DNA of 64,000 nt. Origin: Torpedo marmorata (lineage: Eukaryota). The stretch covers positions 40,486,001 through 40,550,000 of the forward strand of contig OZ360245.1 of assembly GCA_977017645.1 (NCBI GenBank), in the 5' to 3' direction. A program made the translations under genes and the position numbers. The notes below the pieces were generated by a model. It saw only the letters and a program-made list of their open reading frames with translations, did not search any database and was not told the origin of the DNA. Positions 10,291-62,020 of the stretch are shown here, one piece after another. Positions within the stretch are counted from its first letter, which is position 1. Each line of letters opens with the position of its first letter.

Positions 10291-12148
10291 TTTATTCAGG
10301 TCTATCCCTCACCAAACTGCAGCGATAACTGTTTTTTTTTATATGGGAAAGTATTTACAAGTAAATATCATGGGGGAAAAAAGGGAGTAAAATAAAAAAG
10401 GGGAGAAACTTTATTTCCACAGTAATGGTGAGAACATGGGAAAGAGGTGGATGATATTGAGTATAAAGTTAATGCAACAGGAATTGAATGGAATATCCAA
10501 AATAGAAAATTAATAAAAATTGGAAAGCAGACATTAGCAATGTGGGACCAAAGGTGATTTGATTAATAATATTTTTGACAGTGCCCTGCGTAGGAAGCCT
10601 TTATGCATCACCACTGCTGGAATAGACAAAAAGCTGGAATTTAAAAAATCCAGTTACATTTTTGTTGATACATAAATTGCATAAATGAAATGTATTTCTT
10701 ACTAAGACTGGAAGAAACTTGGCAACAGAACATTCTGCACCAGATGCAGACTGACATCACTTCAACAACCCAAAGGAGCTGCCAAAGCAGAGTGCAGCTT
10801 GACGAAAACTAGCAAGTCTTGACCAACTGCTCTTTAAAGCCCTTTGATACCTAGTGACACTGGGCTACACATCAGCTGTGCTGGCGAGGACTTGTGTATT
10901 CCTGGCAAAACAGCACAAGTGAATAAACATTGGTAAACCAGCCAGAACAAAAACTCCATGTCACATAAATTTAAAAGAAATTAGAATGCAAAAGCAGGAG
11001 AACTCATTATAGACAAGGTACAAAAATCTCCCAACACAAGCCCTTTGTAGATGTTAAAATGAGAGCTTCTTCTGTTAAGGACATAAAGGAAGCTGCTCCT
11101 CATTGAGGAACCTTTCATCATATTAAAGATTGACATGAAGCCCACACTTTCTAAAGGTTTCTGCTTCCATTCAAAGGCTGGAAGAATTTACTTTTCACCG
11201 GTAGAACAGTTGATGGTTCACCTGCCTAGTTCCTGATTTTTTTTTTTTGTTGTTGTTGTATTAGTCCAGAATAAATAAAAAGTAAGATAACATTTGAATA
11301 GTTCCAACCTCAAAAAAAAAAGAAAAATAGCTGAATCCTTTAAAGATACTCTTCAGATCTTGTCAGCCTTTTCTCTAACATTGCAGGGAGCGATCGCACC
11401 ACTTGAGAGAATCTTCTTCAGCAAGTCTTCTTCGCATGAAGAAATGACAGTGAATAAAAAATATTGTTATTAGTAAAGTAGTAAGGCTGAGATCAAAAGA
11501 GAGACTTCAAAGAATGTCTGTCAGTTCCTCACCCACAGCAGCAAACATCGAGTCCTATACTTAGAGCGGAAATTTCTTGGACCATCTCATTTCGCCATCT
11601 ATTGTAGTGTTATTGTGAAGAAATAGAATTTCCACAGAACACAGGCTGTTGGGATAATGGCTGTTGGCCTTGTCCAGTGGGTACCCTTGTGCTGATGAGA
11701 TGTCGATCACTACATTCTTCCAACCTTGACTAGATTTGAAAGCTTGTACAGACTAATTGAGTTTTTAAAAAAGATATTGCCATTTTGTGATCAGTATCTT
11801 ACAAAATGCCGACTCCAGCCGTTGTGTCTGTTGATGTTTACTGGGCTTTCTTTGGCTTTGGCAGTCAAATGGGTTAAGATCAATCCTTTTAAATGTGAAG
11901 TTTTATTTTCCCAGGGCCAAATTTTCCATGTGTTTATGGCAAACAGCGCATCATTTAAAAAAAAAAAAAAATTTAAAAAATTACCATACCTTAACAGCCA
12001 GAAAGAGCAGGACCAGTAAAGGAATTTTAATGCTAGATAGTCATGCAGAGAAACCTTTCTCAGTGTTACTGAGTGAAAGTCACTTCATCTCACAAAGTGG
12101 CTGAAATGCCCACATCACATTGGTAGATCCTTTCCTATTTTGTGTTTT
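10291..12148 (-). other. stx1a: Probable stx1a 3' UTR with candidate AATAAA signals at 11902-11907, 10410-10415 and 10291-10296
   Basis: Repeat-poor sequence after the stop codon with minus-strand AATAAA hexamers; the two distal ones are followed by U-rich tracts. The true end cannot be fixed from sequence alone. Confidence 0.45.
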
Positions 12149-12229
12149 TCAAAATCCAAATATTCCCCCAACCGTGGAGGCGATGACAACCCCCAGCACC
12201 ACACAGCATATAATGATCATAATCTTCTT
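12149..12229 (-). CDS. stx1a: Syntaxin-1A canonical terminal TM exon ('10b'), KKIMIIICCVVLGVVIASTVGGIFGF*
   Basis: Acceptor ctacag|AAG, classic KKIMIIICC transmembrane segment, TGA stop at 12149-12151. Confidence 0.96.
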   Translation of the reverse strand, partial: KKIMIIICCVVLGVVIASTVGGIFGF

Positions 12230-13974
12230 CTGTAGCCCCCAAATCCAAGCAGCGTGGCAGGAAGAAGAGGAGAAAGTGTTAGTTCTGAGATTTTATTTAC
12301 ATTTAAATAAAGGAATCTTGAAATAAATCAGGGTCTTTACAGAAGGGCAGATGAACAATTCCAACAGATAACCTTCCCTTTACATTATAAAAATGTTCTT
12401 ATTGCTACCAACTGTCCCCGTGTTACAAGCCCCACATTTCAAAAGACCCTCAACCTTTCTGACCCCTTTAAATAAGTCCCTCATACAAACCTCCATTATA
12501 CCACACATCACTTAGAATAAATATGACACCACATATTCCATCATACTTCAAATGTATCACATGAAAATCCATTCTCACAATAGCCAACTGCTCATAACAG
12601 ATGCAACCTTACATTAACAGCACACCCACTTCATGTTTAACGTCTTACATTAATAAGTACCTTGCGTTTTTAAAAGCTCATTCATGACACTTTTCGTATT
12701 TAAGTAACCAGAAGCTGCAGGGATGTCAGGAAGTTCATTGTCATTTTTTTTTAACCTTTAACCACGATGTAAAATGTTTATACACCGTTGAGTTCTAACT
12801 GGCATCTTAGCCAGCTGGTAATGCAAAGACTCGTCTGTTTATTTCTGTCAAGTTTGCATATAATTGAAAAGCTTGGCTTTGAGAATAAGACTGACATTCA
12901 GAATTCAAGTTGGTTCAATTCTGGGTTGGTGTTAACATTTTAAGGAATAATTCCTTTTATGGGTATGAGTGTCCAAATGTGTGCACACGTGTCTACGTGG
13001 GAGTAAAGTGCATGTCTGTACGTAGGAATGTTATTCCCAATCCGACTCCCATCATCAGGCACCATACAGCATTGTGACACAAAATAGATTTACTGTTCTG
13101 TCCGTGAAGATCTAGACAAAAATTAAGGCCTGAACTTCCTTCCATTCCCTGACGCCAATGGCATTATCCAGCGTCTCCAACTTCTGCCAGTCTGTTGGAG
13201 AAGCTCGATGAATTTCTAGAGTAAGTCACCCTTCACCTCGCACACAGGTTGTACAAGTTTTAATAGCACTGCATTTTTAAAAAGCAGCCATATGCACATG
13301 CAAAATTGCGAGCCAATTATTCAGAAACAGATGAACAAGGCGAGAAATGTAATGCAGATGCAGGAAGAAATGGCTAAGATATAGAAAGTTATGTCTCCTG
13401 CATAACAACTGCACTATCCACATATATTAAGTAGTGCTGTAGTTTTACAGCTATAATACTGTTCCAGTAACACATTCATTAAAGTGATGGAAAAAGGAAA
13501 GAGGATCCATGCTGTAACACAATGCATTTTTCCCATGGCTATATATTTTTTTTTAACCTTTGAGAAGAAATGTATTATTTTTATTGCACAGTGAACACAT
13601 TTGTGCTTTTCCACAGAGTCCACTATTGTTTGGGCAGCTTCACTTATTCTGTTATTTGACAGCAGTCCAGTAACTTGTGTCACAGTTGATACTTTGATCG
13701 ATTAATATTTGCATTTTTACGATTTTACCCTGGTCATTATTTTCTTTAAAAACAATTTTCTACATAGTAGTATATATCCATTTAGAAATATTGACAATGT
13801 ATCATTTCCCATTAGAATGGTGTAAAACAAGCAGACGTGATGCAACTACAAACTAATGTGTGAGTTTTATTTTTCGGTTGTAAAATTAATTCTCTTTGAA
13901 CATCTGTGATGATTCAGCATTACCCTGTATTTCTTCACTATGAAATCAAGAAATAAATAATCAAGAAATGCATT

Positions 13975-17689: not shown

Positions 17690-18560
17690 GTCCAAAAGTA
17701 TTGTTTATGTGGACCTCCAGGGATGTTTCAGTAAAAGACAGCTAAATTAGAAACTCATGGAATTGAAGGAGAATTTAGCAGTTTAACATACAGACTGAAC
17801 GGCAGCAAACAAGTGGTAGGGTTAAAGGTGGGTATTTCATGTTGGCAGCATGACTAAAATTGGCATTGAGTTTGCAAAGATTTATTGTACTTCGTGACAA
17901 GATACAAAACAACATATTTAATTTGCCTGACATAAGGACATGCAAAACTGGAAGCATTAGAGATGAGAGCCTTAAATTATAAAGAGCTAATGGATTAAGC
18001 AAATGGGCAAAACAGGATTGACAAGACTCGAGAGAATACATACTGGATGTTGTTAAACCAGAAACAGTGGAGATCCAAAGAGGATTGGATAAATCATTAA
18101 AATGTCACGGACGGGTACAGAAAATAATAAGGCAAATGGAGTACTGGCTTTTACATTGAGCGAACTAGAATGAACGGGGGTTCTCAAATGTTAAGATTAG
18201 GGTTAGACCGCGCCTGGAGTACTGGAAGCAGTGCCTTACACAGATAGTTTTGCCTTGGAAAGAGCAGATTTATCACAATAATACCTGAATTCTGATATGA
18301 AAACCGAATCCCAACAATTACATTGCAAATTGAAATTATTCAAATTGCATTTCATACCATTTGGAAAGTCAAAGGGTTACCTGAAGCAAGCTTTCAAAAT
18401 ATTAAAGGGAAAACACACTAAATAAAGCATTCCCACTTATTTTCTTGTTTAGGATGAAATGGCAGAGTCTAAACATTGAAATCGGGAGTGAACCCAGAAA
18501 ACATTTATACTCATAAGTGACAGTAGAAATCTGTAACTGTTAAATTTAGACATGAGGTTG
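17690..18560 (+). mobile_element. Highly degraded CR1-like LINE remnant
   Basis: Residual motifs tttatgtggac, aaatttagaa..catggaattgaagg-like, aatttgcctga, gttagaccgcgcctggagtactg; no intact frame. Confidence 0.55.
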
Positions 18561-19506
18561 TTAGTTTTTGTTTAAAGCAATGGAATCTTCCCATTAGACA
18601 ATCCCCTGGGATTGACAAAGACTTGCCTCCACTCTGGTTCTGAGGTACCTGGTGAGACCAGTGTGGGACCAATAGCCTGCACCAACCATTGGGCAGGAGG
18701 TTGCTGATGGTGTGGATGGGGACGTAGTATGTGAAGCGTTTGGTTCATTCTACTGATTATGCTGGCATCTGCGTGTTGCCATCTCATGATCTGGAGGTTC
18801 CCAGTGCCCTCCTGATGGTGCCTCTTCAACTTTAGCGGTCAGGGGCTAGGAATTCCTAGGAATTGGTGGCATTTTTTTCCCAAGCAGGTGGGTATATGAG
18901 GTAACAGATCTGCCATGTTCTTGCTGAATGCCAGAGCAGGATCGGGGAACTAAATGGGTGTGTTCCATTACCACATTGATCTTGTAAAATTTGCAGAGAG
19001 AAGGGGTCTGAGAGGGGTGGGAAGAGAGATGAAGGTGGAAGGATAGAGAAATGAGTAAAGTAGCAAGATGGGAAGGAAAGAGAAAGGGTTTGGGAAGTCA
19101 TTGATTTAGAAATTATTATAAAAATCTGTTGACTGCAAAACATCACCTGTATTCACAGTGACTTAATGTTGGTAAAATCATGGATCATAGTCTGTTCAGG
19201 TTCAGACTAATAATGTTTCTTAGTATTGAAATACAAGAGTGTGTAGTTTGAGTCCTGATGTCGCTCTTCAGTTTAGAGAGGTGCCAAAGCAAACAAGGTC
19301 CACACTGGAGAGTAGAACTCAAACCGGAATAATGGTCTTGGTGCCTACAAGCAGGCGCTCCTGGAATGTCCTAGTGTTGGCAAAATGAAATGAAAATGTC
19401 CAGCAATGATGAGCTGTCCTTCCTTTTCACACCAGCTTTCATGGAACAAGAGCCCATCTTTAGTCTCAATCAGGATGGTTCGGTGGGATCATGCAACTTT
19501 GTAGCA

Positions 19507-19584
19507 TTAACTGAGAGACACAGCCAAAGCAATGATGATAACCAACAGTACTATTGCAATGCAAATTCCAATAAAGATCATTTT
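19507..19584 (-). CDS. stx1a: Alternative terminal transmembrane exon ('10a'), KMIFIGICIAIVLLVIIIALAVSLS*
   Basis: Strong acceptor ttttcttcccttcctacag|AAA, phase 0 matching both exon 9 versions. It reads Lys plus 24 uncharged, mostly hydrophobic residues then TAA, which is a typical syntaxin tail anchor. Confidence 0.83.
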   Translation of the reverse strand, partial: KMIFIGICIAIVLLVIIIALAVSLS

Positions 19585-19621
19585 CTGTAGGAAGGGAAGA
19601 AAACAATCAGATGAGGCTCAG

Positions 19622-19627
19622 CATGCA
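19622..19627 (-). promoter_or_regulatory. UGCAUG (RBFOX) motif about 38 nt upstream of the alternative TM exon; a second copy lies at 19490-19495 just after its stop
   Basis: catgca on the + strand at both positions. Upstream or exonic position is the established repressive geometry. Confidence 0.45.
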
Positions 19628-20909
19628 GAAAAAAACAGCAGCAACAAATAAAACATTCAGAATGTGATGCAGAGTCTTGGTTGACCACTGAGCGTCTTTC
19701 ACATATTGGAATAATATGCTCTCAAACTGTGACAGGATGTCAAAATTGTCCTTGCGTGCCAATGACTCAAAGTTGGACAATGTTGGACGACCAATTGAAT
19801 AACCAGATGTAAAATTGTGCCAGTGAGTGTTAAGAACATCTGGTCCCCACAGAGCACTCAGAAATGTCTCAAAATGAGAACCTCCAGATACCATGGACAT
19901 TGACTGCAGAGTGCTTGGGTGTCGGGTCAGGGATATTGCCTTTCAGTTTGGATGGACTCAGCGACCAGCTGTAGACAGGCATCATTAGAAGACTTCACTG
20001 CTTTCCTTACAAGCACTAAGTATCCTTCCCACAGATCAATGCCCAGCACCAATAATGTGGCCAGGCAATATAAAGCTGGTGGTACAACCAAAATAGAAGG
20101 ATGTGCATACTGTCCCTCTCTGCTCTCTCCAGGGCAATGAGGTGACAATCAGGTTCCCCGTTCAGCACACCATCCACCTTGGGGATCAGCTTTACTTAGA
20201 TAGGCACAGAGTTAACCTTAAAAAGCACACAGCAGCAAAACTCTCAGGAAACATTTAGCATTGGATGCAAGCAACAATCACCAAGCCTTAGAATATCTGC
20301 ATTTTAACAACAGTAGAGAGATTGTGGCAAAATGATAACAAATAATCTATGAGTATCTGAAAATGCACCTGTAACTTGCTTTATGCATCGACGCGCAACT
20401 GCTTATCTGTTAGCGTCAGCTTGAGAGATGCCAGCACGCATGTCAATGGTGGCAGTGATTACAACAATCATTGATAAAGTGATATGGGGGTGGGGTAGGG
20501 AAGGGGGAGTGGGATGTTGATCTGCTTGCACTGTGCCATCACTCTAGGTGGTTTCATTGAAAAGGCATTGCAGATCAATCACTTGCCTTTGTCTCCGTTC
20601 TCTGGTGTGAGAGTACAGTATTGGCAGCTAGTGCTACACGCCCAGAGACTAAACTGGTCAGCCTGTCTACCTTCAATTTTCTATCGTCCCAGAAATAAAG
20701 GTGGAGATAAATCCCCAAATGAAAGGCAAAATTATGAAGTAGCAACAAAGGCCATAATGTGTGAGCATCAACAACGACCTGGCGCATACAGTAAATGCAA
20801 TTCCCTTCCAACGCCCAGGACATTAAACATTTAATCCAAAACATTAACTCTGTTTCTCTTTCACAGATGCTGCCTGAATTGCTGTGTATTTCCAGCATTT
20901 ACAATGCAT

Positions 20910-23180
20910 AAACGTGCTGGAGAAACTCAGCAGGTCACGTAACATCCATAGGAAGTCAAAGAAAATCAAAATTTCGGGCCTGAGCCTTTCATCAGGAACG
21001 TTTCTGATGAAGATCAGATTTTGAGAGTGCAAAAGCTTTATGTTCCTGTTAGGTTAAAAGGAGGGGCAAAAGGTTTGAGAGAGCCGTGGTTTTCGAGGAA
21101 TATTGGAAACTTGGTTCGAAAAAAAAGGGAGGCATACATTAAGTATAAGAAGTATGGAATTAAGGAGATGTTTGAAAAATACATTGAATGTAAAAGGAAC
21201 CTTAAGAGAGGAATTAGGAAAGCTAAAAGAAGGTACGAGGAGACTATAGCAAGCAGGGAAGCAGGGTGAAAATTAATCCAAAAGGTTTCTACAAATACGT
21301 TAATGGTAAAAGGAAAGCGAGGGACAAAATTGGTCCCTTAGAGAATCAGAGCGGAAAACTGTGTGTGGAGCCTAGAAAAATGGGGGAGATATTGAACAGT
21401 TTCTTTTCTTCAGTATTCACCAAGGAGAAGGATATTGGGATATGTGAGATAAAAAAAAGCAAATTGGGTAAATATGGAGAATATAGTGATTACGAAGGAT
21501 GTAGTGTTAGGGCTTTTGAGGCATATAAAGGTGGATAAGTCTCCGGGACCCGACGGGATCTTCCCCAGGACCTTGAGAGAAGTAAGTGAGGAAATAGCAG
21601 AGGCTCTGACGGTGATTTTCCAAATGTCATTAGAGATGGGGATAGTGCCGGAGGATTGGTGTATTGCGCATGTGGTTCCGTTATTTAAAAAGGGTTCAAG
21701 GAGGAAGCCTGGCAATTATCGGCCTGTAAGTTTGACGTCTGTGGTAGGTAAATTAATGGAGAAAGTTCTTAGAGATAGTACGGTACTTGTAAATATCTGG
21801 ATAGACAGGGTCTGATCAGGAACACTCAACACGGATTTGTGAGCGGAAGGTCCTGTTTGACCAATCTGATTGAATTTTTTGAAGAGGTGACTAGGAATGT
21901 GGATGAGGGTAGCGCGGTGGATGTTGTCTATATGGACTTCAGTAAGGCCTTCGATAAGGTACCACATGGAAGGTTAGTTAGGAAGGTGCAGTCTTTAGGT
22001 ATAAATTTTGAGATAGTCAAATGGATTGAACATTGGCTGAAAGGGAGAGGCCAGAGAGTGGTAGTGGATAATTGTCTGTCAGGTTGGAGGCCGGTGACCA
22101 GCGGTGTGCCTCAGGGATCTGTATTGGGCCCATTGTTGTTCGTTATATACATTAATGATCTCGATGATGGGGTGGTGAACTGGATTAGTAAATATGCAGA
22201 CGATACTAAGATAGGTGGAATAGTGGATAATGATTGCAGAGGGATTTGGGCTGCTTAGAAAAGTGGGCTGAAAAATGGCAAATAGAGTTTAATGCTGATA
22301 AGTGTGAGGTGCTTCATTTTGGTAAGAAGAATCAGAACAGGACATACGTAGTAAATGGGAGAGCATTGATGAATACAGAAGAGCAGAAAGATTTAGGAGT
22401 AACGGTGCATCGTTCCCTGAAGGTAGAAACTCATGTGAATAGGGTGGTGAAGAAGGCTTTTAGTATGCTGGCCTTTATCAATCATTGCATAGAATATAGG
22501 AGTTGGGAAGTGATGTTGAGATTATATAAGGCATTGGTGCGGCCTAATTTAGAGCTCTGTGTGCAGTTCTGGTCGCCAAATTATAGGAAGGATATCAACA
22601 GAGTGGAGAGAGTGCAGAGAAGATTTACCAGAATGTTACCTGGGTTTAAGCATCTAGAGTACAAGGAGAGATTGAGCAGATTAGGTCTTTATTCTTTGGA
22701 GCGTAGAAGGTTGAGAGGGGATTTGATAGAGGTATTTAAGATTATGAAAGGGATAGACAGAGTGGATGTGGATAGACTATTTCCATTAAGAGTAGGAGAG
22801 ATTGAAACAAGAGGACATGAGTTAAGAGTTAAGGGGCAGAGGTTTAGAGGTAACATGAGGGGGAACTTCTTTACTCAGAGAGTGGTAGCGGTGTGGAATG
22901 AGCTTCCGGGAGAAGTAGTGGCGGCAGAGTCAATTTTATTATTTAAGAAAAAGTTGGACAGGTATATGGATGAGAAGGAGGTGGAGGGTTATGGGCAGGG
23001 TGCAGGTAGGTGGGACTAGAGAGGAGTGTTTGGTTCGGTGCGGACTAGAAGGGCCTAATGGCCTGTTTCCGTGCTGTAATTGTTATATGGTTATATAAGG
23101 GCTCAGGCCTTAAATGTTTATTGCATTTTACTTCCTCTGGGTGCTGCGTGACCTGCAGACTTTCTCCAGCACTTCTGTGT
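20910..23180. mobile_element. Palindromic Penelope-end element (arms about 20910-21000 and 21001-21012 plus 23097-23180) split by a CR1 insertion
   Basis: Removing 21013-23099 restores cctgagcctttcatcaggaacgtttctgatgaagggctcagg, and the two arms are reverse complements. Confidence 0.75.
21013..23096 (+). mobile_element. 5'-truncated CR1 LINE, RT and C-terminal region with a few frameshifts
   Basis: ORFs 21021-23019 contain [40 protein letters not shown] and SLERRRLRGD. Tail gttatatggttatat; possible AAG TSD. Confidence 0.96.
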
Positions 23181-29978: not shown

Positions 29979-29984
29979 CATGCA
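29979..29984 (-). promoter_or_regulatory. UGCAUG (RBFOX) motif 25 nt downstream of canonical exon 9
   Basis: catgca on the + strand at 29979-29984. A downstream intronic position is the established enhancer geometry for RBFOX. Confidence 0.5.
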
Positions 29985-30008: not shown

Positions 30009-30119
30009 CCGTCGCGCTTTACTCTGGTACTTAACCGCCTTTTTCGTGTCGGACACTGCCCGCTCTACGTAGTCAACGGAATGCTCAACGTTGTATTCGA
30101 TCCTGTCTATCATCTCTCC
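30009..30119 (-). CDS. stx1a: Syntaxin-1A canonical exon 9 ('9b'), [37 protein letters not shown]
   Basis: 111 nt, acceptor tctttcctcgatgccag|GGA and donor CGG|gtaagtg, near-identical to syntaxin-1 residues 227-263. Confidence 0.97.
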
Positions 30120-30194
30120 CTGGCATCGAGGAAAGAGCAGAGACGTGTGAAAATAACAGAGGTGTTTCAGGTGCCGTTACCTCCGGTCACTTAC

Positions 30195-30305
30195 CCGTCT
30201 GCTGGTACTCTGAAAATTAACTGCTTTTTTTGTGCTGTCCTTTGCCTGTCCGATGTAATCAGTTGCATTGACAACATTCCTCTCAATACTGTTGGCCACA
30301 TCACC
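30195..30305 (-). CDS. stx1a: Duplicated alternative exon 9 ('9a'), C-terminal half of the SNARE motif, [37 protein letters not shown]
   Basis: 111 nt (same as canonical exon 9), phase 0/0, strong acceptor ttttccctttgtttcag|GGT and donor CGG|gtaagtg, no stop codon, 17/37 aa identical to the canonical exon with heptad layers kept. Not present in the ORF track. Confidence 0.85.
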
Positions 30306-33037: not shown

Positions 33038-34212
33038 CATAGAACCACAGAACATTACAGCACAGAAACAGGCCCTTCGGCTCTTCTAGTCTGTGCCGAA
33101 CTATTTTTCTGCCTAGTCCCATGACCAGCACCCAGTCCATCGCCCTACAAACCCCTCCCATCCAGGCACCTGTCCAAATTCTTAAATGTTAAAATCGAGC
33201 ATGCATTCACCACTTCAGCTGGCAGTTCCACACCCCCACCACTTGCTGTGTGAAGAAGTTCCCCCTATTGTTCCCCTCAAAACTTTTCCCCTTTCACCCT
33301 TACCCCATGTCCTATGGTTTGTATCTCACCTACCCTCAGTCGAAAAAGCCTACGTATATTTACTCTGTCTATATCATAATTTAAAAAACCTCTATCAAAT
33401 CTCACCTCATTCTTCTACGCTCCAGGGAAAAAAGTCCCTCCTGTTTAACCTTTCCCTGTAACTCAGTTCCCGAAGTCCGGGCAACATTCCTAGTAAATCT
33501 TCTCTGCACTCTTTCAATCTTATTGATATCTTTCCTGTAGTTAGGTGACCAAAACTGCACACAATACTCCAGATTTGGCCTCACCAATGTCTTATACAAC
33601 TTCACCATAACATCCCAACTATACTCAATACTTCGATTTATGAAGGCCAATATGCCAAAAGCTCTATTTACAACCCTATCTATCTGTGACACCACTTTCA
33701 GGGAACTATGTATCTGTATTCCCAGATCCCTCTGTTCTGCCGCACTCCTCAGTGCCCTACCATTTATCATGCATGTACTTTCTTGGTTTGTCCTTCCAAA
33801 ATGCAACATCTCACACTTGTCTGCATTAAATTCCATCTGCCATTTTTCAGCCCATTTTTTCAGCTGGTTCAGATCCCTCTGCAAGATTTGAAAACCTTCC
33901 TCACTGTCCACAATACCTCCAATCTTTGTGTCATCTGCAAACTTGCTGATCCAATTTACCACATTATCATCCAGATCATTGATATAGATGACAAACAACA
34001 ATGGTCCCAGCACTGAACCCTGAGGCACACCACTAGTCGCAGGCCTCCAGTCTGAGAAGCAATCATCCACCACTACTCTCTGGGTTCTCCCGCATCGCCA
34101 ATGTCGAATCCAGTTTCCTACCTCACAATGAACACTGAGCATCAGAACCTTCCTGACTAACCTCCCATGTGGGACCTTGTCAAAGGCCTTACTAAAGTCC
34201 ATTTAGACAACA
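33038..34212 (-). mobile_element. 5'-truncated CR1 LINE
   Basis: ORF 33402-34202 has [19 protein letters not shown] and FADD; the 3' terminus is retained. Same family as 40108-42570. Confidence 0.95.
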
Positions 34213-34397: not shown

Positions 34398-34535
34398 CTG
34401 GCTTTCCACCAGCATTGCCATGTCCATGAACATGTCGTGCAGCTCACGGATACAGTTCTCCAGTTTGATGATCTCATGGTGTCGTGTTTCAATCTCATTA
34501 AGAGCCTGCTTCGTAATGTTGGAATCCATTATGAT
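34398..34535 (-). CDS. stx1a: Syntaxin-1A exon 8, N-terminal half of the Qa-SNARE motif, [46 protein letters not shown]
   Basis: 138 nt, acceptor tctctcccttcag|ATC and donor CAG|gtaag, ending on the zero-layer Gln. IIMDS and MFMDMA favour STX1A over STX1B (IKMDS/MFVDMA, recalled). Confidence 0.96.
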
Positions 34536-38670: not shown

Positions 38671-40010
38671 TCAGATTTCAGATTTATTGTCAAGAGTACA
38701 TACATGACGTCACATACAACCCTGAGATTCTTTTTCCTGCGGGCGCAGCAGAATTAGCACTTATTGGTAGTGCAAAAAGTAAACTGTACACAGCGTAAAC
38801 ATGTAAACAATCAAAAGAACTGCTAACAGGTAACGAATGAAATTGAAAATGAATCTGACTGTGCAATACAGAGAGAGCAAAGAAAAATCAATAAAGTGCA
38901 CAAGAGTCCTTAAATGAGTCTCTGATTTGACTTTGTCGTTGAGGATTCTGATGGTAGATGGGTAGCAGCTGTTCCTAAACCTGGTGGTGCGAGTCTTGTG
39001 GCACCTATACCTCTCTCCTGATGGCAGCAGCGAGAACAGAGCGTGTGCTGGGTGGTGTGGGTCTTTGATGATTGCTGCTGCCCTCCGACAGCAGCGTTCC
39101 CTGTAGATGTACTCAATAGTGGGGAGGGTTTTGCCAGTAATGTCCTGGGCTGTGTCCACTACCTTTTGGAGGGCTTTACGCTCAGGGGTATTGGTGTTCC
39201 CATACCAGACCGTGATGCAGTCGGTCAGCACACTTTCCACCACACATCTATAGAAATTTGCCAGGGTTTCTGATGTCATACCAAACCTCTGCAAACTCCT
39301 GAGGAAGTAAAGGCGCTGATGTGCTTTCTTCACGATGCCATTGGTGTGTTGGGTCCAGGAAAGATCCTCCGAGATAGTGACTCCCAAGAACTTAAATTTC
39401 CTCACCCTCTCCACCTCTGATCCCCCAATGATCACTGGATTGTATACCTCTGGCTTTCCTTTCCTGAAGTCAACAATCAGCTCCTTAGTTTTGGTGACAT
39501 TGAGTGCAAGGTTGTTTTTGGTGCACCATTCAGCCAGGTTTTCAATCTCCATCCTGTATGCTGACTCATCCCCTTCCTTTATACAACCCACTACCGTGGT
39601 ATCGTCGACAAATTTGTAGATGGTGTTATTGTCATACCGAGCTACACAGTCGTAGGTGTAAAGTGAGTAGAGCAGGGGGCTAAGAACACAGCCCTGTGGT
39701 GTTCCTGTACTGATGGAGATTGTGGAGGAGAAGTTCTTACCAATCTTCACTGATTGTGGTCTGGAAGTGAGGAAATCCATGATTCAATTACACAGTGGGG
39801 TGTTAACTCCCAGGTCTTGGAGTTTGCTGATCAGTTTTGAGGGGATGATGGTGTTAAATGCCGAACTGTAGTCGATAAAGAGCATCCTGATGTATACATC
39901 TTTACTGTCCAGGTGTTCCATGGCTTTGTGTAGGGCCAGTGAGATGGCATCCGCCGTAGACCTGTTGCCGCGATAGGCGAACTGGAATGGATCCATGTCA
40001 CCGCTCAGAC
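38671..40010 (-). mobile_element. 5'-truncated Rex1/Babar-like LINE (RT plus C-terminal domain)
   Basis: [60 protein letters not shown]. One in-frame stop at 39784-39786. Tail tgacaataaatctgaaatctga. Confidence 0.92.
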
Positions 40011-43055: not shown

Positions 43056-43129
43056 CCCAGATGTGAAGATAGCAGGATTCCCACTCTCCAGCATGTCTTC
43101 CAGCTCTTCATTTGTGGTCGTTCTTCCAG
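43056..43129 (-). CDS. stx1a: Syntaxin-1A internal exon (equivalent to mammalian exon 7), (T)GRTTTNEELEDMLESGNPAIFTSG
   Basis: 74-nt exon, acceptor ttgattccag|CT and donor GGG|gtgag. The translation matches the syntaxin-1 linker including the LE motif (ELEDMLE), and ESGNPAIF is 1A-like. Confidence 0.95.
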
Positions 43130-45896: not shown

Positions 45897-48731
45897 CACT
45901 GGGCAATAAAGATTTTGCTTCCTGAACACTTTTGGATGTATTTTATGAATTTTGGGCTGCTGGTAACAAAAATCACCATACAATTTTCCTATTTCATACT
46001 GTTTTTTTTATATAGAACCTATTTTTGTGATTTCCTGTCATATTTTAAGTCTACTAGTATATTGCCCACAAAGCAAGCTGTTTTGGTCCGTCCAAGCATG
46101 CCTGGGCATACACTCAGTGCAGGAGCTATGCAAATGTTGTCTTAGGCCGAGGCATGCTTGGTCAGGATAGATGCAGACAGACTATAAAAGCAGCTCACAA
46201 ATGCTGTGCATTACATTGATATAGATTGAACGCATGTTAATGCACATGTTCTTCAGGCAATAGCATAGTGAGTGTACTTAACAATAGCATTTATTCAGAT
46301 CCTAATATAGTAGGGATTAAAGTCGGTATGGAAGAGCATAAGATTAGTTTGTTTGCAGATGATGTACTAATATATATGACAAAATCAGTTTTATCACTTC
46401 AACATTTAGCTATTAAATTAACAGAATATGGTGAAATATCTGGATATAAAATTAATGCGGATAAAAGTGAAATAATGGCTTTATCTCAAGGTGATTATAC
46501 TAGATGTAGAGAAGTTACGGAATTTAAGTGGGCAAAAGAAGGAATTAAATATTTGGGAGTAAAAGTGGATACAAAATTAGAAAATTTATATAAATTAAAT
46601 TATGTACCCTTATTTACGAAAATAAAGAAAGATTTGGAAAATTGGAAAGATTTACCTATAACTTTAATGGGGAGAGTAAATTGTATTAAGATGAATATTT
46701 TTCCAAGAATTCAATATCTTTTTCAATCAATTCCTTTTGGAATTCCAAAAATTTTTTTTAAAGATTTAAGATTTATAGTTAGGAAATTTTTATGGAAAGA
46801 GAAGTTAGCAAGAGTGAGTATGGAGAAGTTAACATGGAATTATGAGATGGGAGGAATGCAACTCCCTAATTTTCAATATTATTATAAAGCAGCTCAATTA
46901 AAATTTGTTAATGAATTTTTTGATTTAGCTAAAACTTCTGCTTGGATTAATATAGAATTAAATAATATAGGAGAAAATTATAAAGAGGATATTATTTATA
47001 AGTGGAATTCTAAATTATTGTTAGTTAAAAAGAAAAATTCACCGATTATTAAACATTTATTGGAAGTTTGGACACAGGTAGATAAAGAAATAGGTGGGAA
47101 AGGAACAATTTCTTTAAATATGCCACTATATCAAAATCCACTTTTATTATTTACTATGAATAATCAGTTATTGAAAACATGGTTTCAAAAAGGTATTAAA
47201 AATTTTAAAGATTGTTTTGAAGCTGGAAGATTTGTTACGTTTCAAAGATTGAAAGAAAAATTTGATATATTAGATAATACATGGTTAGCTTATTATCAGG
47301 TTAAAGCTTTTTTGGTTGAGAAATTAGGAGAAAATTTGATTGCTCCAAGGTATAATGAGTTAGAATTATTAATTACTAAAGCAAATGTTAATAAGTTTAT
47401 TTCTCAAATGTATAAATTATTTCAGAGAAAAATGCCTTAAGTAGGATTACATAAATCAAGATTAAAATGGGAATTAGATTTAAATATTAATATAGCTCAA
47501 AAACATTGGGAAGATTTATGTAAGTTAAGTATGACTAAAGTTATTAATGTTAGGTATAGATTGGTACAATATAATTTTTTTCATCAATTATACTTAACAC
47601 CAAAAAAATTAAAGAAATTTAATCCGACATTGTCGGATTTGTGTTTTAGATGTAAGAATGAAGTAGGTTCTTTTGTTCATTCTACATGGTTATGTCCAAA
47701 GATTCAAGATTTTTGGCTTAAAGTTAAGAATTTTTTAGAGAGAGTTTTTAATGTTAGGTTTCCAATGGATCCTATGTTATTTCTATTTGGAGATATTAGA
47801 AAATTTAGTATTAGGAATAGATTGAATATGTATCAGGTAGAATTTTTGCGTATTGCTTTAGCTGTTTCAAAAAAATGTATTGCTATTACTTGGAAATCAG
47901 ATTTAGATTTAAATTTAGATAGATGGCATGCAGAACTTCGTTCGTGTATTCCTTTGGAAAAAATTACTTATAATTTACGTAATAAATATCATTCTTTTTT
48001 AAAAATTTGGAGCCCATATTTGAGAGTTATGGGTTTAAGGATTTGAAATTTCTGGAAATCAGGTCTATTGGCGAGTTTAACCTCCAGATTAAAATTAGTT
48101 TTTAGATGGTTCTCTCCTCACTATTAATCTCTTTTTTCTTTTTCTCTTTTTTCTTTTTCTATTTTTAGAATAGTGGGGTTGGGGAGGGGTGGGAGGGTGC
48201 GGGGGGAGGAAATTTATATCACTGTATTTTGGAAACTATATATTTTGAATTATGTATTGTGTGATTTAAAAAATTTAAATAAAATAATAAAAAAAATTAA
48301 AAAAAACAATAGCATTTATTGTCTTCAGGAAGATTAAATACAGCAGAAATGTCTCGTCAATGTTGCAACAGCTGTGATACATTCTGTTACATTTGTGGTG
48401 AGTATATGCTTAAGGCTCAAAGATGCAGCATGACTGCACTTACTAAGAAAGCCTATGAACTCTACTTTGGTTGTAAAATTGGTGACCAAGACAAACCCTG
48501 GGCTCCTCACATTTGTTGTGCAACATGTGCAGTCAACCTGAGAGTTTGGCTCAGAGGTACACTATGCAATTAAACATACTAAATTCAATAAAAGTTAATT
48601 TAGTGATTCTCCAACTTCCTACGTGATACAGCAAATCTGAAATTATCATTGTGTTCATCTTGAAGTTGTCTATAATAATCCCCAATTTTTTTTCAGGAAG
48701 CAAACCTTTTGAAAAAAATTGTTGTCCAGTG
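45897..48731 (+). mobile_element. Internally deleted CMC/Chapaev3-like DNA transposon (about 0.8 kb) interrupted by an L1
   Basis: Termini cactgggcaataa..tttgcttcctga and tcaggaagcaaa..ttgttgtccagtg, flanked by tag and taa. N-terminal zinc-finger ORF MSRQCCNSCDTFCYICGE..YFGCKIGDQDKPWAPHICCATC at 48349-48573. Confidence 0.75.
46296..48304 (+). mobile_element. 5'-truncated L1/Tx1-like LINE (RT C-half, CCHC zinc knuckle, 3' UTR, polyA)
   Basis: SLFADDVL, GYKINADKS, IKYLG, CFRC..H..W.CP; one in-frame stop; 16-bp TSD aacaatagcatttatt at 46280-46295 and 48305-48320. Confidence 0.96.
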
Positions 48732-53766: not shown

Positions 53767-56513
53767 TGTTATGGACCATGACTGACCATTTGGACTGCAG
53801 ACGGTCAGCAGGAAGGATGAAGTCTTTTGGAGTACACACTGGGACCAGGTACTGAAAGAGTTAACTTGCCCAGGACTTGGTGTATCCAGAGAGAGAGAGA
53901 GAGAGACAGGCTATGGAAAAGATACTTTGTTGCACTTTTGCAAAAGCAGGTGCAGACCTCTGCAAAAAGCAGGCAGTTTGGCTGGAGAACACAGCAAAAT
54001 CCAGGCTCGTGCATCCCAGAGAAAAAGGCTGGGAGAATAGCACATGGTCTCCTGTCTCAGAAAAATCCTGAGTTAAAGCAACTTTTGTGGAGAACAGGCG
54101 TGAGATCAGCGAGACCAGCTGTGAGATCCAAGTACACGCCTCAATCAGTGGTGTACTAAAATTAATTCAGATAAAAGTGAGATTTTGGCTTTATCTCAAG
54201 GGGATTATACTAGATGTAAAGAAGTTACGGACTTTAAATGGACTACAGAGAGTATTAAATATTTGGGAGTTAGAGTTGATACAAAATTAGAAAATTTGTA
54301 TAAATTAAATTATATACCTTTATTTATGAAAATAAAAAAAGATTTAGAGCTTTGGAAAGATTTACCTATAACTTTGATGGGAAGAGTAAATTGTATCAAA
54401 ATGAATGTTTTTCCAAGAATTCAATATCTTTTTCAATCGATTCCTTATGGTATTCCAAGTAAATTTTTTAAAGATTTAAAATTTGTTGTTAGGAAATTTT
54501 TATGGAAAGGAAAGTTGGCAAGAGTAAGTATAGATAAATTAACATGGAATTATGAGATGGGAGGGTTACAACTTCCCAATTTTCAACATTATTATAAAGT
54601 AGCTCAATTAAAATTTATTAATGAATTTTTTGATTTAAATAAATCTTCTGCTTGGATTAATATAGAATTGAATAATATAGGAGAAACACATAAAGAAGAT
54701 ATTATATATAAATGGAATTCTAAATTATTATTACTTAAAAAGAAAAATACACCAATTATTAAACATCTGTTGGAAATTTGGTCACAAGTAGACAAAGAGA
54801 TAGGTCAAAAGGGATTAATTTCTTTAAATACACCAATATATCAAAATCCGCTTTTACCATTTTCTATGGATAATCAGTTACTTAAGTTATGGTTTTAAAA
54901 GGGAATTAAGATTTTAAAAGATTGTTTTGAAGCAGGTAGATTTATCACTTTCCAGAGGTTAAAAGAAAAATTTAATATATTAGATAATACAATGTTAGTT
55001 TATTTTCAAGTTAAAGCTTTTTTGATTGAGAGATTAGGGAATGAATTAACAGTACCAAGACAAAATGAATTGGAATTATTAATTACTAAAGTCAATGTTA
55101 ATAAATTTATATCACAAATGTATAAACTGTTTCAAAGAAAGATGTCTAAAGTAGGAGTGCATAAGTCTAGATTGAAATGGGAATTGGATTTAAATGTTAA
55201 TATAGATGAAAATCACTGGAGAGATTTATGTAAATTAAGTATGACTAAAGTTATAAATGTGAGATACAGATTAGTACAATATAATTTTTTTCATCAATTA
55301 TATTTGACACCTAAAAAATTGAAGAAATTCAATCCAGCGTTATCAGATATGTGTTTTAGATGTAAAACTGAAATAGGTTCTTTTGTACACTGTACATGGT
55401 CATGTCCAAAAATTCAAGATTTTTGGTTGAAAGTTAAGAATTTTTTAGAAAGAATTTTGAATGTTGAAGTTACAATGGATCCTATGTTATTTTTATTTGG
55501 AGATATTAAAAAATTTAGTATTAGAAATAGATTAAATATGTATCAAGTAGAATTTTTACGAAAATATTAGCAGTTTCGAAAAAGTGTATAGCTATTACTT
55601 GGAAATCGGATGTTGATTTAAATCTAGAGCGATGGCATGCAGAGTTACGGTCATGTATACCATTAGAAAAAATTACTTATAATTTACGAAATAAATATCA
55701 TTCTTTTTTGAAAATTTGGGGCCCATATATGAGGATTATGGGTTTAACATTGTAAATTCTCTGGATATCAGATCCGCCGGCGAAATAACCTCTAAGGTAT
55801 ATTAGTTTTTAAGTTTATTGACTCCTCACTCTATTTTTCTATCTTTTCTTTTCTTTTTCTTTTATTATTTTACTTTAAAATTTAGAATAGGGGGATATAG
55901 GGGCTAGGGAGGGGAGGGAGGGGAGGGTGGGAAGGGGGGGGAGAAAATGTAATCACATGTATTTTTTAAGAATTATATGCAAAATTATTTTATGTAATGT
56001 GTGATTTAAAAATTTAAATAAAATATTTAAAAAAAAAAAAAATCAGTGGTGTACTGATTTGGAGTCGCAATCCTCGCGAATCTCTACCAAAAGGGAAAGT
56101 CATCAGAAAAACAAGCCAAGTATTCGTAAGCATAAACAGTCATTGTCTCTCTCCAACGTTCATTGAAAAGTCCTTCTACCAGCACACAGAGCTGAATTTG
56201 GAACCTGAACTTAGAGAGTGAATTTTTGTGGACTGTATTATTTTTATTTTTTTGACTGACTTGTTTTTATGACTGACCTGGGGTTTTTGGGGAAAGTTTT
56301 TCCATTTTTACATGAGGGTTGGGCACAGACTGTAATGGTCTGGGCTTTATACACACACACACATACCTTTTAGATAAGAATAGTGTTTATAGACGTTTAT
56401 AGTGGGGTTAATTGTTGTGAAATTATACGTTTAATTGTCTTTAATAAATATAAATTTCAATTTTACCCCTTTTGCATTGCGTCTTCTGTCGTTGCTGGTT
56501 CGATTTTGTAACA
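53767..56513 (+). mobile_element. Solo LTR (about 850 bp) interrupted by an L1
   Basis: TGTTA...TAACA termini, 4-bp TSD ggag at 53763-53766 and 56514-56517, AATAAA near 56443. Removing it restores colinearity with 50550-50826. Confidence 0.88.
54158..56040 (+). mobile_element. 5'-truncated L1/Tx1-like LINE
   Basis: ORFs 54185-54898 and 54992-55570 are homologous to 46268-48046; polyA; 15-bp TSD aatcagtggtgtact at 54143-54157 and 56041-56055. Confidence 0.96.
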
Positions 56514-59819: not shown

Positions 59820-60200
59820 GGAGGAGAGGCTGGGCAGACTTGGCTTATACCCACTGGTGTTCAGAAGAGTTGGGGGACTTGAATAAAACATAAAAGATCC
59901 TGAGGGGTCTGAACAAGAGGATATTTCTTCCTTTTGGAAAATCTAGAATTAGAGACAAAAGGTTGCCCATTCAAGACAGAGGAAGACAATTTTTATTTCT
60001 CTCTGGGCCTTGTGAGTCTTTGGAGCTCTCTTCCACAAAGAGGGGAGGAAGCAGTTTGAATATGTTTAAAGTAGAGGTAGATTGATTCAATATAAGCAAG
60101 AGAGTGAAAGGTTACTGCAGGTAGACGAATGCAAAGTTGAGGTTACCATCTGATCCGCCATGATCTTATTAAATGACAGAGGTTAAACTCAAGAGGTCAA
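59820..60200 (+). mobile_element. Degraded CR1 3' end, target of the following L1
   Basis: gaggctgggcagacttggcttata, gtctttggagctctcttccacaaag and gccatgatcttattaaatg. Confidence 0.6.
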
Positions 60201-60207
60201 GTGGATA

Positions 60208-62020
60208 AAGAAGCAATTAAATATTTGGGAGTTAAAGTAGATACAAAATTGGAAAATGTATATAAATTAAATTATATACCTCTATTTCAGAAAATAAAGA
60301 AAGATTTGGAAAATTGGAAAGATTTACCTATAACCCTAATGGGAAGAGTGAATTGTATTAAAATGAATATCTTTCCAAGAGTTCAATACCTTTTTCAATC
60401 TATACCTTTTGGAATTCCTCAAAAATTTTTTAAAGATTTAAAAATCATTGTTAGAAAATTTTTATGGAAAGGAAAATTAGCAAGGGTAAGTATGGATAAA
60501 TTAACTTGGGAATATGAGATGGGTGGATTACAACTCCCCAATTTTCAATATTATTATAAGGCAGCACAATTAAAGTTTATTAATGAATTTTTTGATTTAA
60601 CTAAATCTACTGCTTGGATTAATATAGAATTGAATAATATAGGGGAAAGATATAAGGAAGATATTATTTATAAATGGAATTCTAAATTATTATTAGTTAA
60701 AAAGAAAAAATCACCGATTATTAAACATTTACTGGAAATCTGGACTCAGTTAGACAATGAGATAGGACGAAAAGGGTAATTATCTTTGAATATGCCATTG
60801 TATCAGAATTTATTGTTACCTTTTTCTATTGATAATCAATTTTTAAAACTATGGTTTCAAAAAGGAATTAAGAAGATTAAAGATTGTTTTGAGGCTGGAA
60901 GATTTGTTACATTCTCTAGGTTGAAAGAAAAATTTGGAATAATGGATAATACGATTTTGGCTTATTATCAGGTTAAAGGATTTTTAGTTGAGAAATTGGG
61001 GAATCAATTAATAACTCCTAGACAGGATGGATTAGAATTATTAATTACTAATGGAAATGTTAACAAGTTTATATCACAAATATATAGATTACTTCAGAGA
61101 AAGATGCCTAAGGTAGGATTGCATAAATCAAGATTAAATTGGGAATCAGATTTAAATATTAGTATAGATGAAAAACATTGGAAAGAATTATGTAAATTGA
61201 GTATGACCAAAATTATTAATGTTAGATATAGATTAGTACAATATAATTTTTTTCATCAATTATATTTAACACCTAAAAAATTAAAGAAATTTAATCCGGC
61301 ACTATCAGATATGTGTTTTAGATGTAGGGATGAAATAGGTTCTTTTGTACACTGTACATGGTCATGTTTAAAAATTCAAAATTTTTGGTCTAAAGTTAAG
61401 GATTTTTTGGATAGAATTTTTAATATTACGGTTCCAATGGACCCTATGTTATTTTTATTTGGAGATATTAAAAAATTTAGTATTAGAAATAGATTGAATA
61501 TGTATCAAATAGAATTTTTACGAATTGTTTTAGCGGTTTCAAAAAAATGTATCGCTGTTACTTGGAAATCAGATTTAGATTTGAGTTTAGATAGATTACA
61601 TGCAGAATTACGTTCTTGTATACCATTGGAAAAAATTACATATAATTTACGTGATAAATATCATTTCTTTTTGAAAATTTGGAGCCCATATATGAGAATT
61701 ATGGGTATGAATTAATTCTCTAGAAGTTGGTATCGCTGGCAAAAATAACCTCCAATATATAAATAGAATTAGCTTGTAATTTGTTTTCTCCTCACTTTAA
61801 CTCTTTAATTCTTTATTATTCAACTCTTTTCTTTTTTTTTTCTTTATAACTAACATTCTTTTTTTTTTCTTCTTTTTTTTTTAGAATAGTGCTGGGGGGG
61901 TTGGGGAGGGGAGGGTGGGGGGGGGGAGGTAATATATCACATGTATTTTAAATGATATACTATTTTTGATTAATGTATTTTGTGATTTTAAAATTTAAAT
62001 AAAATTATAAAAAAAAAAAA
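60208..62020 (+). mobile_element. 5'-truncated L1/Tx1-like LINE
   Basis: ORFs 60201-60779 and 60786-61715; polyA; 17-bp TSD aagaggtcaagtggata at 60191-60207 and 62021-62037. Confidence 0.96.

Follow-up and report, generated by a model that had tools for sequence, protein, structure and literature searches.

Duplicated exons 9 and 10 at the stx1a locus

The window, i.e. the whole 64,000-nucleotide stretch of DNA that was analysed, contains the 3' portion of a syntaxin gene located on the minus strand, to which all the features given below belong. Two shared exons, exon 7 (43056..43129) and exon 8 (34398..34535), the latter ending at Q226, the layer-0 Gln within the SNARE motif, are followed by two tandem exons 9 of equal length and by two terminal exons that both encode a membrane anchor followed by a stop codon, in the order 9a, 9b, 10a, 10b (exon numbering after the STX3 papers); the exons upstream of exon 7 are found further along the contig (C59). 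Exon 8 is identical to that carried by Narcine and Carcharodon proteins and matches that of RefSeq-named 1A proteins, unlike 1B-like rows, and the best matches among solved structures were to syntaxin-1A. Judged from its sequence, the gene is the stx1a of a cartilaginous fish, 1A and not 1B.

Exons 9a (30195..30305) and 9b (30009..30119) are both 111 nt long and in phase 0, with 66 of 111 nucleotides and 17 of 37 residues identical. The former is of the A type (33/37 residues identical to Narcine and 22/37 to human STX2), and the latter is the canonical B-type exon, joined to 10b in contigs from runs X2 and X5. Inclusion of both would keep the reading frame, so that decay cannot enforce their exclusion. 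The intron between them has 75 nt (30120..30194), and the five branch-point-like words predicted by a simple pattern match are all 8-47 nt from the 9a donor, within the limit of <50 nt from donor to branch point used for steric exclusion (PMC5740500). Exons 9a and 9b may therefore be mutually exclusive through steric interference across this short intron. Reading on from 9a into the intron (30180-30194) leads to a stop after 5 codons, which would yield a soluble syntaxin, and several shark RefSeq models end in this way; reading on from 9b (below 30009) leaves the frame open for at least 63 codons.

The coding part of exon 10b (12149..12229) provides the canonical B-type anchor with its CC pair. 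Within the 9b-10b intron of 17,779 nt lies the coding part of exon 10a (19507..19584), an alternative terminal exon that encodes a 25-residue A-type tail anchor and a stop: the minus strand from 19584 to 19507 reads KMIFIGICIAIVLLVIIIALAVSLS and then TAA, directly preceded by the acceptor ttttcttcccttcctacag (3' splice site at 19585..19606, with 17/19 pyrimidines and CAG). The tail has an apolar C-terminal helix of about 20 residues, as expected of a tail-anchored Qa-SNARE, with a Kyte-Doolittle value of 3.48, and its single Cys is in register with C271 of STX1A. The start of the 10a 3' UTR (19266..19506) is alike in another species (X5 record 25), and the first candidate polyadenylation signals after 10a (17881..17922; ATTAAA at 17922 and AATAAA at 17886, both putative) are found about 1.6 kb past the stop.

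Across the 9b-10b intron, 10a was the sole candidate combining acceptor and anchor at a loose cut (at least 14/19 pyrimidines and a Kyte-Doolittle value of at least 2.3). Among 400 locally matched Markov introns, 14 contained a candidate at this cut and none at the observed strength, the strict cut (17/19, 3.4) having been taken from the observation itself. When the window's 2,786 six-frame peptides were ranked with a profile of 10 teleost STX1A tails, 10a came first (E 7.3e-8, with a high hydrophobic bias of 13.3 bits; runner-up, E 2.6). A profile of six B tails rendered 10b (E 5.5e-14), with 10a not among its best five matches. A two-sequence STX2 tail profile matched 10a at just E 0.052, and 10a was not among the best five matches to an STX2/STX3A long-tail profile. 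A search of the own genome indicated that the 10a DNA is single-copy.

The preliminary description had proposed a second transmembrane terminal exon in the last stx1a intron, some 7.3 kb upstream of the canonical one, in the correct phase, and with one Cys instead of CC and one Lys instead of KK. The frame, the acceptor, the simulation (0/400) and a Narcine tail identical in 24 of 25 residues bear out this exon; 10b starts at 12229, a distance of 7,355 nt, both exons 9 end in phase 0 while 10a begins in phase 0, and the two residue differences are seen in 10a. Exon 10a is confirmed as a real, conserved alternative transmembrane terminal exon of stx1a.

As a minor observation, the 10b acceptor (12229-12275) is weak, with 9/19 pyrimidines, a G run before CAG and a pyrimidine tract set further back. 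That of 10a is strong, and 10a may have to be actively repressed for the canonical form to be made. The 10b 3' UTR (10576-12229) is long and shows conservation: more than 1.4 kb of it aligns with contigs of two other species. No Rfam match was found in the window. Long frames are present in introns (22234-23016, 33405-34202, 38764-39783, 46241-48043, 54125-55567 and 60177-61712), which by eye resemble fragments of retroelement reverse transcriptases, three AT-rich copies being mutually related.

Transcript contigs and candidate splice regulation

Assembled contigs from 4 of 24 runs (X1, X2, X5 and X19) were examined, of which X2, X5 and X19 come from other species and whose RNA status is a guess. 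In X2 and in X5, contigs connect 30009 with 12229 over a GT-AG intron, indicating that both runs contain spliced 9b-10b. The X2 contig over 10a (19415-19675) runs through the acceptor unspliced, and a contig of X19, a further species, spans 9b and runs through the short intron into 9a. X1, the closest run in sequence, had no cover over 9a, 9b or 10a.

Record 25 of X5 aligns to 19266-19584 (47 differences, 4 gaps), stops exactly at the 10a acceptor, and has 139 further letters past 19584; record 24 also has 139 letters before the 9b-10b joint. This length equals the 111 bases of an exon 9 plus 28 of exon 8, and 28 plus the first two bases common to 9a and 9b makes 30, which we take to be the overlap expected at a fork of a 31-mer graph (k = 31). 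Moreover, the X5 depth left in the 9a/9b bin amounts to 111-118 nt at the depth of record 25. The arithmetic, from one run of another species and with no 9a-10a joint among those listed, points to 8-9a-10a splicing in X5.

Three TGCATG words, candidate RBFOX sites, are found 25 nt past the 9b donor (29979..29984), 43 nt before the 10a acceptor (19622..19627) and 12 nt past the 10a stop (19490..19495), a count that is not significant alone (3 in 1,575 nt versus about 1.1 expected). We take TGCATG to be the word recognised by RBFOX and assume the RBFOX position rule, by which these sites would favour 9b and repress 10a in neurons; the choices of 9b and 10a would then be coupled through a shared RBFOX-type switch. 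The own stx2 gene has a TGCATG 15 nt past its exon 9. Cys-Met (TGY ATG) is present at codons 10-13 in all four teleost read-through models that carry 9A, and at codon 9 in the window, although such protein rows conceal the Cys codon and the other frames. Within 20 codons it occurs in 0/14 other read-through rows (three of them STX1A-like without 9A upstream, one short, and some not true read-throughs) and in 16/885 of the background. Exon 10a itself would be chosen by earlier polyadenylation. No convincing long-range RNA pairing was found around 9a/9b or 10a/10b (best E 0.77), only short inverted repeats.

The A module in other fishes and its ancestry

RefSeq models of the electric ray Narcine bancroftii join 8-9a-10a, with 33/37 (9a) and 24/25 (tail) residues identical to the window. 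The product of 9a and 10a with a TSRRK linker, anticipated in the preliminary description, is found letter for letter in two of its proteins (XP_069766522.1 and XP_069766519.1), and the hydrophobic frame, whose absence from other chondrichthyans would have counted against the exon, is conserved in Narcine, in a Scyliorhinus model and also in teleosts. Exon 9a is present in models of Carcharodon, two Chiloscyllium, Stegostoma, Cetorhinus and Scyliorhinus. The six cluster members with 9a from the first five of these sharks all end without a 10a tail, and the Scyliorhinus model combines 9a, 9b and a 10a-like tail.

A search among representatives rendered a tiger barb STX1A carrying the A module, and a search with this barb module gave 43 matches from 59 candidates, in cypriniforms, herrings, eels and Prochilodus, with weak matches in Poecilia. 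They comprise 22 with 9A and an A tail (including one 9A/9B hybrid model and two ORFs from Logan contigs of 1.1-1.6 kb, P0182 and P0190), 5 with 9A then 9B in tandem, 5 with 9B and an A tail, and 11 with 9A and another end; gene models of this kind may combine exons without read support. The open frame, the length, Gly6 and Cys8 are kept in 27 of the 27 teleost A tails. The models examined show the A module to be conserved in rays, in sharks (as 9a) and in teleosts. Several cyprinid proteins (P0185, P0194, P0198-P0200, P0202 and P0204) have an unusually diverged 9B and N-terminus, with 9B paired to an A tail, and in one of the cyprinid stx1a copies usage may be shifting to A alone.

A reading of 10a as a silent remnant, or as a hydrophobic frame that arose by chance and was picked up by annotation pipelines, would suit the X2 contig that runs unspliced through its acceptor. 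This we regard as scarcely credible, given the features kept in all 27 teleost A tails, the 24/25 identity in Narcine, the lack of any equally strong candidate in 400 simulated introns, and the X5 contig ending at the acceptor. It can also be the case that 10a is real and the choices of exon 9 and exon 10 are independent, in which case as many as four isoforms with a membrane anchor would be made, besides soluble ones from read-through. The 5 of 43 teleost matches in which 9B is mixed with an A tail, the Scyliorhinus model, and the shark models that end by intron read-through after 9a (as would happen in the window after 5 codons) agree with independent choice; among gene models, where tandem 9A+9B forms occur too, coupling is not strict. 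Coupling of 9A to 10A and of 9B to 10B is, on the other hand, suggested by the arithmetic in the one X5 run, where the contigs fork in exon 8 and each proceeds unbroken to its own terminal exon, by the presence of 9A in 22 of the 27 A-tail models, and by human STX3, analysed as coupled 8/9A-9A/10A and 8/9B-9B/10B junctions (PMC8263458), so that independent choice appears unlikely.

Of the rows among 150 representatives whose 1A exon 8 is mammal/reptile-like, the 11 in which an exon 9 could be recognised are all of B type and 7 have other ends; 1B-like rows are 30 B and 5 other. No tetrapod STX1A came up in the searches, those with 9a and the barb module among them, which were word-limited or made on sets clustered at 50%; this absence suggests that the A module may have been lost from tetrapod STX1A.

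A module tree was constructed from exon 9 plus the tail with 29 hand-picked rows, 12 of them labelled by likeness, and 64 columns, the trees overall using 37-64 columns. Its starred branch (99/98) splits STX1A-A, STX2 and STX3A from STX1A-B, STX1B, STX3B and two invertebrate rows, and shark/ray and teleost STX1A-A rows group together with one further row (95/90). An exon-9-only tree gave the same A/B split (94/95, unstarred). The AU test, with groups defined after the free tree was known, rejected a clade of STX1 alone (p 3.0e-5) and likewise one of STX3 alone (p 2.4e-4). In a tree of exons 2-8, the A-carrying Narcine and Carcharodon proteins fall within STX1 and not STX2/3 (SH-aLRT 87), 1A not being resolved as one clade. 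Since B-type sequences are highly conserved, constraint or gene conversion could in part underlie the B group.

Other features of the modules can be compared between genes. In a turtle STX3 model (P0080) 9A precedes 9B, the same order as in STX1A. The 10a tail is identical to the human STX2 tail in 11 of 25 residues, and one STX2 tail (human XP_016874469.1, and in bird) has, like 10a, 25 residues with Cys at position 8. The stx2-like gene of the own genome has one A-type exon 9 and one tail in the 60 kb examined, and no B-type exon 9 was found at that locus. In the records examined, both modules are present in STX3 and fish STX1A; STX2 has A alone, and STX1B has B alone. The simplest account would be that the A/B tandem duplication predates the split of STX1, STX2 and STX3, and the distribution suggests that the genes for vertebrate syntaxins came to differ according to which end they retained, A, B or both together.

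A separate origin of the module within STX1A, either by a tandem duplication of its own plus convergence or by conversion from STX2, would make the likeness to STX3A/3B something other than shared ancestry. The alignments are short, the exon-9-only tree does not unite the 9A rows of sharks and teleosts in a single supported group, and the arthropod-like proteins P0089 and P0101 have tandem exon-9-like copies, so that such duplication can recur. Nevertheless, the AU rejections of STX1-only and STX3-only clades, the A-then-B order common to STX1A and STX3, and the 25-residue, Cys8 tail found also in one human and bird STX2 tail make a separate origin very unlikely compared with a duplication shared by these genes. 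As a side observation, tandem or alternative exon-9-like segments occur in four arthropod-like syntaxin-1 models (the two mentioned, P0059 and P0081), and P0119 has an A-like module; the exon-9 duplication may be older than vertebrates or recurrent.

Predicted properties of the A form and relation to other syntaxins

With the SNARE layer numbering and positions that we assume for 9a and 9b, layers +1 to +8 read AIVAIATA in 9a versus IIVSVATA in 9b, the hydrophobic positions being retained. At surface positions 231, 232, 235, 238, 248 and 249, 9a has N, S, R, V, K and D, and 9b has D, R, Y, E, V and S. The substitutions D231N, R232N, Y235R, E238V, V248K and S249E have been tested in mouse neurons (PMC10957171), and N231, R235, V238 and K248 of 9a are four of these six STX2-type changes, to which S232 and D249 are added; on this ground the A isoform would be a natural STX1A/STX2 chimera. 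In the STX1A-2(Cter) chimera of that study, bearing the STX2 segment 226-255, mEPSC frequency (spontaneous release) was raised about 3-fold, the RRP decreased (0.5 nC to 0.2 nC), and the probability of release increased by 42% (PMC10957171).

The linker of the A form is less basic (3 versus 5 basic residues over 260-265), lacking K260 and K265, and its anchor lacks C272. The palmitoylation of STX1A C271/C272 and the binding of KARRKK to PIP2, stated in the preliminary description, agree with PMC9183232, in which palmitoylation and spontaneous release were both reduced by K260E and C272V, K264/K265 were most important for PIP2, and rescue with STX3A restored just about 15% of evoked current. 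Weaker PIP2 clustering and different membrane targeting are predicted for the TSRRK linker. The effects expected on spontaneous release are mixed, since loss of K260 and C272 would lower it and the SNARE-half swap would raise release; the safe prediction is therefore a small primed pool and poor synchronous release, which would suit non-synaptic secretion. The A isoform is probably a chimera of this natural kind, poor at clamped synaptic release.

The two-module design is known from STX3, where exons 1-8 are common to STX3A and STX3B, differences lie in the SNARE motif's C-terminal half and in the anchor, and STX3B is nearer to STX1A (PMC11476516 and PMC8263458). As in stx1a, the switch between 9A/10A and 9B/10B is located at layer 0 and provides an alternative C-half SNARE, linker and anchor (also PMC9183232), and in the tree the window's a exons fall with the STX3 A module and its b exons with the B module. 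In contrast to STX3, the gene found here is STX1A and its canonical neuronal form uses the B module, and the A tail of stx1a has 25 residues and one Cys, whereas that of STX3A is longer and Cys-free. STX2 resembles the stx1a A module in its single A-type exon 9 and in one tail of the length and Cys position of 10a, but no B-type exon 9 was found at its own-genome locus, and identity is modest (22/37 and 11/25). Alternative tails are also seen in C. elegans unc-64, a syntaxin-1 in which the anchor varies (A/B/C tails; PMC1914072, in agreement with the preliminary description), and in STX2, with two tails in protein records. SNAP-25 offers another pair of duplicated alternative exons in a neuronal SNARE (5a/5b), in that case one internal pair (PMC2581893). 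Whereas the STX1A-2(Cter) chimera replaces Q226-255 (PMC10957171), the natural 9a spans 227-263, and the A form also alters linker and anchor.

The STX1A A isoform is already in databases, as automatic models: RefSeq/UniRef 'syntaxin-1A isoform X' entries of Narcine, cyprinids, herrings and eels include the A module, near-identical in Narcine, and are numbered automatically, with no isoform name or interpretation in the records. No earlier description of it was found among the papers searched, and subscription journals may hold a mention.

The reading that we favour, with a probability of about 0.8, is that fish stx1a has two C-terminal modules, 9a-10a and 9b-10b, derived from an ancient A/B duplication, and that the A form serves non-synaptic or slower exocytosis. 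The shared exons 1-8 reach as far as the SNARE motif's layer-0 Gln. Splicing 8-9b-10b gives canonical syntaxin-1A, and splicing 8-9a-10a would join the STX1A Habc and N-half SNARE to an STX2/STX3A-type C-half SNARE, the less basic linker and a one-cysteine anchor. Joint use of 9a and 9b would be sterically prevented by the 75-nt intron, earlier polyadenylation would select 10a, and an RBFOX-type switch would favour 9b and repress 10a in neurons. The duplication would have preceded the STX1/2/3 split, with STX3 and fish STX1A retaining both modules. The A form would be able to zipper SNARE complexes but would clamp and prime vesicles poorly, so that it is most likely to act in non-synaptic or slower exocytosis.

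A bolder proposal, to which we give somewhat less than even odds, is that the plasma-membrane syntaxins of vertebrates go back to a single gene that could be spliced to either of two fusion ends, B being clamped and synaptic and A looser, under one RBFOX-type switch. The specialisation of STX1 and STX2, as well as the likeness of retinal STX3B to STX1, would have resulted from reciprocal exon loss after genome duplication, and an STX1A so far unrecognised, whose splicing alters the mode of release, would persist in sharks, rays and many teleosts. The difference between synaptic syntaxin-1 and syntaxin-2/3A would have a simple origin as two modules of one ancestral gene sorted by exon loss, an account that would cover the retina-specific STX3B resembling STX1. 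The A isoform would also provide a natural counterpart of a chimera until now built by hand for priming and clamping studies, and fish stx1a knock-outs, probes and antibodies may hit two functionally different proteins. The idea is open to test in Danio-like fish.

No multi-exon stx3 or stx1b locus came up when the own genome was searched with STX3 and STX1B-like proteins. A small contig bears a separate exon 2 like that of STX1, perhaps an stx1b fragment (L026, G000:C3539:548-634), and the searches of the assembly turned up no other exons of stx1b or stx3, so the absence of both loci probably reflects assembly gaps, and the possibility that the A form replaces a lost STX3 was not upheld. Intron-poor, distant syntaxins with 24-37% identity to the queries were also detected (G000:C11:117257641-117258435, C43:75055502-75056134, C47:103291319-103292038 and C39:24772210-24772527).
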